The translations under genes were made by a program, and so were the position numbers. Below the pieces are notes generated by a model. It did not search any database. It was not told the DNA's origin and saw nothing but the letters and a program-made list of their open reading frames with translations. Positions 1-1,498 of a stretch of DNA of 35,242 nucleotides are shown piece after piece. Position 1 is the first letter of the stretch, and each line of letters starts with the position of its first letter. Source of the stretch: Burkholderiales bacterium (GTDB taxonomy: Bacteria; Pseudomonadota; Gammaproteobacteria; Burkholderiales; SG8-41); the NCBI GenBank assembly GCA_019746155.1, contig JAIESJ010000049.1, positions 1 through 35,242 on the forward strand. The letters are read 5' to 3'.

Positions 1-42
1 CCGCGGACAGCCCTGGGACTGCCGACGCTACTCCCCTCTGCG
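1..42 (-). ncRNA. 5' part of a second yybP-ykoY riboswitch (truncated by window edge)
   Basis: Minus strand reads GCAGAGGGGAGTAGC (AGGGGAGTAGC at 37..27, identical to 301-311 on +), followed by a P2-like hairpin GGCAGTC-ccag-GGCTGTC. The 3' half lies outside the window. Confidence 0.6.
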
Positions 43-234
43 AGGATGCTCATGTTGCGCGCGCTGCCGCTGACGGCGGCGCGCGCAACGCATGTCTCAG
101 TCAGAGACGCCTCAGATTATGGGTCGATGGCATGTCGAAATGAAATGAAACTTTGTAATACGATAGATTGATATCCATGTACGTTTTCCGCGTTCTTAAT
201 GCCGTCCATTAAGTAACATAATGCATGGCCTGGC

Positions 235-264
235 TTGACGCGGGTAAATTGGCTGTGTTAAAAA
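235..264 (+). promoter_or_regulatory. Putative sigma70 promoter for the riboswitch-lysR transcript
   Basis: TTGACG (235-240), 17-18 nt spacer, TG-n-TAAAAA; lies ~35 nt upstream of the aptamer. Confidence 0.45.
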
Positions 265-297
265 CTGGCTGCGTTCCGGGATCCGGATACGCCCCTC

Positions 298-412
298 CAA
301 AGGGGAGTAGCTTTAGTGGCGCCATTGAAGCGCCATTCAGCAGGGCCGTCATTACGGGACTTGAGGGTCCCCGGTCCTGTTGGCAACGAAAGCGTTGTAA
401 GCGAGACCTTTG
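298..412 (+). ncRNA. yybP-ykoY (Mn2+-sensing) riboswitch aptamer
   Basis: Hallmark segments CAAAGGGGAGTAGC (298-311), CCGTCATTACGG (346-357) and GCGAGACCTTTG (401-412). P1 CAAAGG/CCTTTG closes the aptamer; internal hairpins TGGCGC/GCGCCA and CAACG-aaag-CGTTG. Confidence 0.9.
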
Positions 413-436
413 CCCAGATGGGTAAAGGTCTTTTTT
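404..436 (+). terminator. Intrinsic terminator, riboswitch expression platform
   Basis: AGACCTTTGCCC-agat-GGGTAAAGGTCT then T-tract; its 5' arm overlaps the aptamer P1 3' strand, so the two folds are mutually exclusive (ON-switch logic). Confidence 0.85.
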
Positions 437-439
437 ATT

Positions 440-480
440 TGCGGCCTTCGCCCGTCAGAGGTGAAGGCCGCATTGCTTTT
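440..480 (+). terminator. Second strong hairpin in the lysR leader
   Basis: TGCGGCCTTCGCC-cgtcaga-GGTGAAGGCCGCA followed by TTGCTTTT. Confidence 0.45.
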
Positions 481-544
481 GGGCATACCATAACGTGCCC
501 CGCATGCGGATTTAATCACCGTTATTGATGACGTGAGGCGATCC

Positions 545-1498
545 ATGCAACCCAGCAAAATTCGACGCTATCTCAAGCACGGCACGCTGCCGCAACTGAG
601 CGTGTTCGAGGCCGTTGCGCGCCACGGCAGCTTCACTCGTGCCGCCGAGGAACTCTACATGGCACAGCCGACCGTTTCGGTGCAGATAAGGAAGCTCGCC
701 GAAACCGTCGGGCTGCCGTTGTTCGAGCAGATTGGCAAGCAGATACATCTCACGGAAGCCGGACGCGAGCTCTACGCCGCATGCCACGAGATATTCAGCA
801 CACTGCACGGCGTCGAGAGCACGCTCTCCGATATCCGCGGCCTTAAATGCGGGCGCCTGCAGCTGGCGGCGAGCACCACGGGAAAATATTTTGCCCCGCG
901 CATGCTCGCAGGGTTCGTGCAACGTCATCCCGGCATCGAGGTGTCACTCCAGATCCATCCCCGCGAAACGCTGATTGAACGCATGGCGCAAAACGCCGAC
1001 GACCTCTATATCTTCGCCAATCCGCCCACCGATTCGGAGGTTGTGACGCAGATGATCCTGCCCAATCCGATGGTGGTGTTCGCACGCGCCGACCATCCGC
1101 TGGCGCGTGAAAGGAACATCCCGTTCGAGCGCTTCGCCCGGGAGCCATTCCTGATGCGCGAGCCCGGTTCCGGCACGCGCATGGTGGCTCAACAAATCTT
1201 TGAACAACGCGGCGTCAGGCCCTCGGTACGCATGGAACTGTCCACCAACGAGGCGATCAAGCAAGCGATCCTCGCCGGTCTCGGCGTCTCCATCATGTCG
1301 CGCTACACGCTGGGTCTCGGCGTGGCGCAGGACCAGCTCGTCACGCTCGATGTCGAAGGCTTTCCCCTGGAGCGTCACTGGTACTTCGTCTACCCCGTAG
1401 GCAAGCAATTGCCGGTAGTGGCGCAGACATTCATGGATTTCGTGCGCAAGGAAGTCAAGAATCTGGTGCTGGATCACCTGCCCCTGACCAAGCAGTGA
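545..1498 (+). CDS. LysR-family transcriptional regulator, CbbR/CmpR-like
   Basis: HTH TLPQLSVFEAVARHGSFTRAAEELYMAQPTVS; effector-domain motifs TTGKYFAPR, REPGSGTR, NEAIKQAILAGLGVS. ATG 545 follows GAGG. Confidence 0.9.
   Translation: MQPSKIRRYLKHGTLPQLSVFEAVARHGSFTRAAEELYMAQPTVSVQIRKLAETVGLPLFEQIGKQIHLTEAGRELYAACHEIFSTLHGVESTLSDIRGLKCGRLQLAASTTGKYFAPRMLAGFVQRHPGIEVSLQIHPRETLIERMAQNADDLYIFANPPTDSEVVTQMILPNPMVVFARADHPLARERNIPFERFAREPFLMREPGSGTRMVAQQIFEQRGVRPSVRMELSTNEAIKQAILAGLGVSIMSRYTLGLGVAQDQLVTLDVEGFPLERHWYFVYPVGKQLPVVAQTFMDFVRKEVKNLVLDHLPLTKQ

Follow-up and report, generated by a model that had tools for sequence, protein, structure and literature searches.

The gene for a LysR-type transcriptional regulator that opens a 35,242-nucleotide (nt) stretch of DNA from a Burkholderiales bacterium (assembly GCA_019746155.1, contig JAIESJ010000049.1; the whole stretch is referred to as the window) was found to be preceded by a complete aptamer of the yybP-ykoY type, a riboswitch class with known manganese (Mn)-responsive members. 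A second, divergently oriented aptamer of the same type is cut by the contig end. Both elements show the yybP-ykoY architecture, and the presence of an aptamer before the LysR gene together with a second, divergent one, as proposed in an annotation made from the sequence alone (the first-pass annotation), is confirmed. The best-supported reading of the locus, and one that we consider reasonably probable, is a cascade in which an RNA sensor governs the LysR regulator and the regulator in turn governs a metal exporter encoded opposite it. The argument is built on the architecture and covariation of the aptamer, the overlap between a predicted terminator and aptamer helix P1, the conserved synteny of the locus and a conserved box in the intergenic region. 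The features are collected in Table 1.

Table 1 Features of the intergenic region and the LysR gene, in window positions
Position	Strand	Feature	Evidence
1–48	−	5' part of a second yybP-ykoY-type aptamer (5' strand of P1, L1 motif, 5' strand of P1.2, P2 hairpin, start of P3), cut by the contig end	Truncated matches below significance; leader alignment; public contigs
52–93	−	GC-rich inverted repeat between the predicted promoter and the aptamer of the minus-strand leader	Read from the sequence; long hairpin, chance match to a microRNA model
115–120	−	Predicted −10 hexamer of the divergent exporter promoter	Constant spacing to the box (about 18 nt) in 32 anchored spacers; aligns with relatives
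137–170		Conserved AT-rich box and partial dyad, overlapping/upstream of the weak divergent −35; candidate LysR site	Pattern count in spacers
235–263	+	Predicted sigma-70 promoter of the LysR transcript (−35 at 235–240, −10 at 258–263)	Read from the sequence; −35 TTGAC and 17-nt spacing recur in same-genus relatives
295–414	+	Complete yybP-ykoY-type aptamer in the LysR leader (P1, L1, P1.2, P2, P3.1, L3, P3.2, P4)	Model R1, 111.2 bits; RNAalifold fold; covariation; Rfam, 20.2 bits
403–438	+	Predicted intrinsic terminator, hairpin H1 (403–432) and U run (433–438); its 5' arm (403–415) holds the 3' strand of P1 (407–412)	Terminator scan; minimum-energy fold; 75 of 75 leaders
416–457	+	Alternative hairpin pairing the 3' arm of H1 with the 5' arm of H2; possible antiterminator once the H1 5' arm is held in P1	−18.9 kcal/mol
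440–482	+	Hairpin H2 (440–472) and U-rich tail, possible second terminator	Terminator scan; fold −26.2 kcal/mol; 93.8% of cells paired, one compensatory pair
545–1498	+	LysR-type transcriptional regulator, 317 amino acids; Shine-Dalgarno GAGG at 535–538	Pfam HTH_1 and LysR_substrate; best NCBIfam model CbbR

A complete aptamer in the LysR leader

The plus-strand aptamer adopts a four-helix fold and is separated by 130 nt from the LysR start codon. The yybP-ykoY aptamer is described in PMC12153347 as a four-way junction with two legs (L1/P1.1/P1.2/P2 and L3/P3.1/P3.2/P4), and an RNAalifold consensus of 15 LysR-linked copies, in which 19 of 37 pairs show compensatory changes, gave P1, P1.2, P2, P3.1, P3.2 and P4, exactly the helices of such a two-legged junction (P1.1, P1.2, P2, P3.1, P3.2 and P4). 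Two stretches of the aptamer, G8–T18 (the L1 motif and its flanks) and A106–C120 (the 3' strand), were invariant in all 15 LysR-linked copies, as was the GAGACC of the 3' strand, and the same motifs occur in terC-linked copies. The L3 sequence CGUCA and its closing C were likewise invariant in 15 of 15, in a loop that is about 2 nt shorter than the Rfam consensus; in members of the class this loop forms the metal site together with L1. The first-pass annotation had described a full aptamer with an overlapping terminator before the LysR gene, and the motif, all helices and a terminator overlapping P1 were recovered at that place. The predicted LysR promoter (Table 1) escaped the promoter scan because its −10 hexamer lacks the final T.

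The L1 motif and the 3' GAGACC strand are shared with the yybP-ykoY switches of Escherichia coli mntP and alx and of Streptococcus pneumoniae mgtA, and so is the proposed ON logic, in which the 3' strand of P1 is also part of a terminator or of a hairpin that hides the ribosome-binding site. Known yybP-ykoY switches stand before transporter genes, whereas the gene following the plus-strand copy encodes a transcription factor instead of a metal exporter. Further differences from mntP, alx and mgtA are that both copies described here score below the Rfam cut-off, that L3 is about 2 nt shorter, and that the expression platform consists of two tandem hairpins with a possible relay between them.

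Conservation and covariation among relatives

A first set of relatives comprised 16 loci from related genomes, encoding LysR proteins 47–79% identical to that of the window. The L1 motif was present on the same strand, some 200–290 nt upstream, in 14 of these; of the two loci lacking it, one offers no more than 39 nt of sequence upstream. In reversed orientation, the motif was also found roughly 470–570 nt upstream in 11 of the 16 loci. Among 13 loci with more distant LysR paralogs, the motif was found upstream in none.

A covariance model, R1, was built from the 15 LysR-linked copies only; one row of this model and of alignments A1 and A3 (L015, from G013) comes from an unpublished genome, and no claim is based on that row alone. 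R1 scored the window copy at 111.2 bits and terC-linked copies, which were outside the training set, at 61–81 bits. It was applied to a wider set holding one genome per species and the best 80 of 344 loci encoding a LysR relative. All genomes of this set are metagenome-assembled, their labels being mostly Burkholderiales or Betaproteobacteria and in some cases plainly automatic, and several contigs are shared with the 16-locus set. The survey of genomes for yybP-ykoY elements before LysR genes that the first-pass annotation had suggested was thereby answered with a same-strand aptamer in 74 of 80 related betaproteobacterial LysR loci, at a median distance of 114.5 nt from the start codon. A divergent aptamer was found in 57; both aptamers were present in 56 loci, the LysR-side one only in 18, the divergent one only in one and neither in five, three of which have no more than 210 nt of upstream DNA.

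Across 131 aligned hits, 95.4% of the cells could pair, compared to 76.7% in shuffled alignments and at most 43.8% with slid partners. Compensatory changes were seen in 31 of 37 pairs, and none of 500 shuffles reached any of the five measures used. Fitting this alignment to the model biases it in favor of the structure; the independent RNAalifold consensus of 15 copies agrees with it. A riboswitch ahead of LysR is conserved across the clade.

The divergent aptamer and the contig end

The window is one whole contig, its first base being contig base 1, and the minus-strand element is truncated by this assembly cut. On the minus strand, positions 37–27 repeat the 11-base L1 motif of positions 300–310 with an identical reverse complement, and a 5-bp hairpin follows. 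The element on its own is weak, with 9.5 bits and an E value of 2.9 for the Rfam model (cut at the 3' end) and 15.5 bits and an E value of 0.12 for R1, and the lack of a significant covariance-model match is due to the truncation by the contig end. A complete divergent aptamer occurs at the equivalent place in 11 of the 16 orthologous loci and in 57 of the 80 loci of the wider set. The terC-linked leaders of same-genus relatives moreover align with the minus-strand leader, in the −10 box and the 5' hairpin as well as in the 5' strand of the aptamer. Both the L1 motif and the P2 hairpin that the first-pass annotation had read from position 37 on the minus strand were seen directly and are backed by relatives, the leader alignment and public contigs; the covariance-model search it had named as a check gave no significant match on the truncated 48 bases.

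In each of four public runs, one contig extends beyond window base 1. After 3 bases these contigs enter a 33-base stretch equal to window positions 344–376 on the opposite strand with one difference, and then run on further; the stretch corresponds to the P3/L3/P3.2 part of the aptamer, in the orientation expected. The public data consist of contigs only, with the type of run being a guess, and are uninformative on transcription, RNA ends and habitat; window bases 101–275 are uncovered in them. A search of the present genome returned no contig overlapping window base 1 and none opening with the 3' half of an aptamer. The two divergent aptamers of this genome thus have a 33-base inverted repeat in common (one difference) over P3/L3/P3.2, and the joint between opposite strands is seen in the contigs of all four runs. 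The shared repeat is probably the cause of the contig break and may be a trace of gene conversion between the two aptamers; the copies of a same-genus relative are not alike across this part.

The repeat would also fit an account in which the terC riboswitch underwent an inverted duplication and left the plus-strand aptamer as a by-product without function, since the two copies differ at a single base over its length. Against such an origin stand the finding of the aptamer upstream of LysR in 74 of the 80 species-level loci, the compensatory changes at 31 of its 37 pairs, its retention in the 18 loci that have no second aptamer, and a conserved expression platform of its own, and we regard a by-product as extremely improbable.

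The expression platform

Two hairpins, H1 and H2, follow the aptamer. As the 3' strand of P1 lies inside the 5' arm of H1, the formation of H1 and of P1 is mutually exclusive, and the overlap was found in 75 of 75 leaders, making this a P1-competing platform as in ON switches. A terminator scan called two sites, compared to a mean of 1.6 in shuffled sequences; this is not significant, and the scan alone is no proof. The unconstrained minimum-energy fold of the window leader (−130.3 kcal/mol) contained both H1 and H2, as well as a small hairpin pairing the conserved 5' flank with the L1 motif. The pairing of H1 and H2 was kept in 94.8% of the aligned cells, with one compensatory pair. Among 64 leaders of at least 100 nt in which both hairpins were found, at least five U residues occur in the 9 nt after H1 in 33, a U-rich tail follows H2 in 14, and one or the other is present in 38; the count was made with H1 limited to 42 nt, and the automatic detection of H2 was imperfect in several leaders.

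The 3' arm of H1 can pair with the 5' arm of H2 in a 13-bp hairpin of −18.9 kcal/mol, compared to −7.5 kcal/mol for shuffled sequences (z −5.2). Over the 64 leaders this relay hairpin had a median z of −2.05, with 32 leaders below −2, and in 23 aligned leaders seven in-register pairs were paired in 80.4% of cells, compared to at most 48.7% with slid partners. A relay from H1 to H2 would be a reasonable kinetic model, in which P1, by holding the 5' arm of H1, could set its 3' arm free for H2.

Five relatives have compact leaders of 36–40 nt (L083, L087, L104, L113 and L115), in which the 3' arm of H1 ends 2–8 nt before the start codon; on the exporter side, none of the five has a second aptamer. 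For four (L083, L087, L104 and L115) an AAGG-type ribosome-binding motif was read by eye in the 3' arm of H1, and there the same competition would act on translation.

The facing exporter and a conserved box

In the 74 loci with a LysR-side aptamer, the facing gene encodes TerC in 64 and a P-type cation ATPase in five; the remaining five comprise one TctC gene on the other strand, two loci with a Usp match only and two with too little flank. TerC, one of the guesses of the first-pass annotation for the divergent gene, was accordingly borne out in the large majority of relatives. Where the second aptamer is missing (18 loci), searching with the filters off gave nothing above 15 bits on the upstream minus strand. 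Ten of these have TerC and five the ATPase, so for these 15 exporters the LysR-side riboswitch is the only one in the intergenic region. The relatives therefore come in three forms: both genes switched, only LysR switched and facing TerC, and only LysR switched and facing a P-type ATPase. The minus-strand copy resembles alx in facing TerC in relatives, and mgtA in that a copy of this type occurs in loci with a P-type ATPase.

A box of the pattern AAATGA-N5-7-NRHAAT was found in 34 of 75 intergenic spacers, whereas 200 shuffles gave 0.125 on average and never more than 1. The 32 anchored sequences show a constant spacing of about 18 nt between the box and ATTAT, the predicted −10 of the divergent promoter on the minus strand. 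A partial dyad follows the box, which is also kept in two ATPase loci that have no second riboswitch. The −35 of the LysR promoter is near consensus and that of the divergent promoter poor. LysR-type regulators bind dyad boxes near −35 to −65 of divergently transcribed targets, and activators of this type usually sit over a weak −35 and the DNA upstream of their target promoter.

Two TerC genes are present elsewhere in this genome, on contigs C242 and C217; both are other paralogs and carry no riboswitch. The N-terminally truncated TerC at the end of C242 was considered as the missing neighbour and rejected, because its orthologs in four same-genus genomes (80–89% identical) are found on different contigs from the LysR-linked terC and carry no riboswitch; the products of that LysR-linked terC are only 44–47% identical to it. 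The TerC on C217 belongs to another subfamily, and was also set aside. In five upstream open reading frames (ORFs; L053, L083, L090, L113 and L115) the TerC sequence continues, with no intervening stop codon, into a universal stress protein (Usp) domain, pointing to TerC-Usp fusions in several relatives.

The LysR protein and inorganic carbon

The regulator matches PF00126 (HTH_1, N-terminal) at 77.4 bits and PF03466 (LysR_substrate, C-terminal) at 188.3 bits. It shares with CbbR regulators these two domains, CbbR as the top-scoring NCBIfam model and a position divergent from its presumed target; it differs from them in scoring 247.3 bits with the CbbR equivalog model, the cut-off of which is 450, and in having no cbb neighbour. 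The model is strict, as a LysR paralog linked to ribulose-1,5-bisphosphate carboxylase/oxygenase (RuBisCO) also remained under its cut-off with 221 bits. Two RuBisCO large-subunit genes were located in the genome (C306:700–3114 and C310:16909–19321), and each has a further LysR paralog lying divergent from it; these two paralogs share 44% and 42% identity with the window LysR. Autotrophy based on two cbb loci is probable for the organism, and by position it is the two RuBisCO-linked paralogs, not the window LysR, that are the CbbR candidates. The CbbR/CmpR-type identity that the first-pass annotation had assigned to the window LysR is not supported, and neither is the proposed link to inorganic carbon or bicarbonate, as the CbbR-like genes stand beside RuBisCO elsewhere in the genome.

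A proposed cascade from RNA sensor to exporter

In the cascade that we favor, two divergent promoters in the intergenic region would each be followed by a yybP-ykoY riboswitch, with Mn2+ as the putative ligand. Without Mn2+, the 3' strand of P1 would pair into H1 and transcription would stop, H2 possibly serving as a backup terminator. With Mn2+, P1 would keep its 3' strand and H1 would be blocked, upon which the freed 3' arm of H1 may pair with the 5' arm of H2 and let the polymerase read into the LysR gene. LysR, made only at high Mn2+, would bind the conserved box, at the −35 of the promoter opposite, and most likely activate the facing exporter (TerC in most relatives; unassembled in this genome). 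With the exporter mRNA carrying the second riboswitch, the arrangement would form a coherent feed-forward loop from RNA sensor to transcription factor to exporter. A feed-forward AND gate had been put forward in the first-pass annotation, and the arrangement is plausible, backed by the conserved box and by the 15 exporters without a switch of their own; the carbon link attached to it is not supported.

Exporter control with two inputs has a counterpart in E. coli, where MntP is, according to PMC11647493, regulated by multiple transcriptional regulators and by a Mn-dependent translational riboswitch. In both cases an exporter would receive a metal-dependent regulator input and a riboswitch input in its own leader; the E. 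coli regulator senses the metal itself, whereas the LysR described here would gain its Mn2+ dependence via the riboswitch of its own mRNA.

A domain of the DtxR/MntR type (PF01325) was found neither in this genome (92.8% complete) nor in six same-genus genomes, and was over the cut-off in only one of 41 relatives. As the whole order is mostly without PF01325, carriers and non-carriers of the LysR switch are not told apart by its absence. At one contig end, part of an Nramp gene was seen. A broader proposal, which we put forward as tentative and rather doubtful, is that the riboswitch-fed LysR is the main regulator of Mn excess in a betaproteobacterial clade that lacks MntR, passing the metal signal on to the promoter of the exporter and perhaps also to a larger regulon, and that one aptamer controls two tandem terminators by a relay.

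Riboswitches usually act on the gene behind them, and by gating a transcription factor a local RNA sensor would reach distant promoters. The known Mn members of the class precede exporters, while here a regulator would borrow its metal sensing from its own leader RNA. If this is true, it would be the first LysR-type regulator made metal-responsive via its own mRNA and the first yybP-ykoY switch with a transcription factor as its output. No report of a yybP-ykoY switch before a LysR gene was found in the literature searched, which left out the supplementary tables of riboswitch surveys, where such contexts are possibly listed; the word LysR is absent from PMC12153347, and PMC2864759 mentions riboswitches and TerC only apart from each other, in unrelated contexts. 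The three forms found among relatives constitute a natural series for testing how feed-forward control over a toxic-metal exporter evolves, and the parts are small enough to be rebuilt in a laboratory host.

Weighing the cascade against other readings

Several results speak against the cascade. Both copies remain under the gathering cut-off of 45 bits of RF00080, the Rfam family in question: the model aligns end to end with positions 290–456 at 20.2 bits (E 0.002, in a 700-base search with permissive settings), and with the truncated minus-strand copy at 9.5 bits. With L3 about 2 nt shorter than in the Rfam consensus, ligand specificity is not assured. The facing gene is off the contig, and the assembly of this genome holds no ortholog of the LysR-linked terC. 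One relative (L064) has kept the aptamer and LysR with no exporter gene upstream. The strict box pattern is absent from 41 of 75 spacers and so present in under half. As for the platform, a clear U run follows H1 in only 33 of 64 long leaders, H2 still forms in a thermodynamic fold with the aptamer enforced, and compensatory changes were seen in only two of the seven relay pairs, the percentage paired being reached by 40 of 500 shuffles. Since the covariation of the relay is not clearly above that of shuffles, the relay is kept as something that we infer.

The Rfam scores can be set against those of other copies. No Rfam family at all reached its gathering score in the whole window. In the loci of 15 relatives, RF00080 gave eight matches to a mixture of terC-linked and LysR-linked copies, all of them below the cut-off at 21.1–39.6 bits, so the threshold fails clade-wide and not for this element alone. 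In a control with 14 well-known genomes, the 177-position model had matches in nine and passed its cut-off in only two, and absence at the gathering level is thus weak evidence against a Mn riboswitch. The cut-off was treated as an operational, not a biological, threshold.

The sub-threshold score and the shorter L3 could also place the LysR-linked aptamer in a variant subclass with a different signal, such as another divalent cation or alkaline pH, or with a need for both signals. There are precedents for such breadth, as alx couples Mn2+ sensing to alkaline pH and mgtA also responds to Ca2+, according to published abstracts and to PMC11672702. We nevertheless find a changed ligand improbable: none of 15 copies departs from the L1 motif, from CGUCA in L3 or from GAGACC in the 3' strand, and the terC-linked copies of the same loci, which precede classical families of Mn exporters, share both the motifs and the short L3.

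The genes around LysR bear on a reading in which the riboswitch does gate LysR, and LysR controls another regulon that follows Mn2+, for example Mn-dependent or Mn-sensitive enzymes, the divergent layout reflecting no more than a shared origin of the aptamers. A scan of 56 of 77 downstream ORFs, from which 21 short ORFs had been dropped, gave a gene of the FAA_hydrolase family on the same strand in 19 of the 56, which would suit such a regulon, as would the spacers without the strict box and the exporter-less locus L064. The other downstream genes vary, however, including those for enoyl-CoA hydratase, TctC, DnaB and permeases, whereas an exporter is kept opposite LysR in 69 of 74 loci. The fixed distance between the box and the exporter −10 and the 15 exporters without a riboswitch of their own likewise point to the exporter as the target, and we consider control of a different regulon not a likely account, albeit one deserving some weight.

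The sign of the regulation could also be the reverse, with LysR repressing the exporter or its own promoter in an incoherent feed-forward or negative feedback loop that limits toxic over-production of the exporter. LysR-type regulators commonly repress their own promoters, and the overlap of the box with the divergent −35 is a position that would suit repression as well. Membrane toxicity of MntP is reported in PMC11647493. The poor divergent −35 next to the near-consensus LysR −35 is, on the other hand, the usual picture of an activator-dependent target, and the repressor model is weakened because the 15 exporters without their own riboswitch would get no inducing input under it. We judge repression to be unlikely, and activation of the exporter by LysR stays the preferred reading.

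Further aptamers and genes nearby

The only copy in this genome to pass the RF00080 cut-off lies on another contig (C89:375–543, locus L002; 76 bits), and was found by R1 at 32 bits with an E value of 8e-5 in the genome. It is similar to the window copy in its L1 motif, its 3' strand and in being found by R1; it differs in passing Rfam, in its longer L3 and in having no adjoining LysR gene. It precedes a gene for a small membrane protein with a repeated EIGDKTQ-like motif, by which we take it to resemble a Mn exporter of the UPF0016 type.

Between the LysR and enoyl-CoA hydratase genes of the window, short ORFs at 1545–2074 gave weak matches to the middle of HdrA (27 bits) and to the N-terminal half of HdrC (56.8 bits, cut-off 160), and look like remnants of an hdr-like cluster; in two relatives, a FAD_oxidored ORF stands in the place of these fragments. 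Matches to the cspA thermoregulator above the Rfam cut-off were found about 1 kb downstream of LysR in two relatives (L015:3228–3564, 90.7 bits; L016:369–728, 86.6 bits). A further aptamer (L031:2467–2581, on contig C25 of G022) was detected by R1 at 65 bits just 3' of a LysR paralog with 51% identity and on the same strand, and the ORF behind it bears a by-eye likeness to the outer-membrane efflux protein of a heavy-metal RND system.

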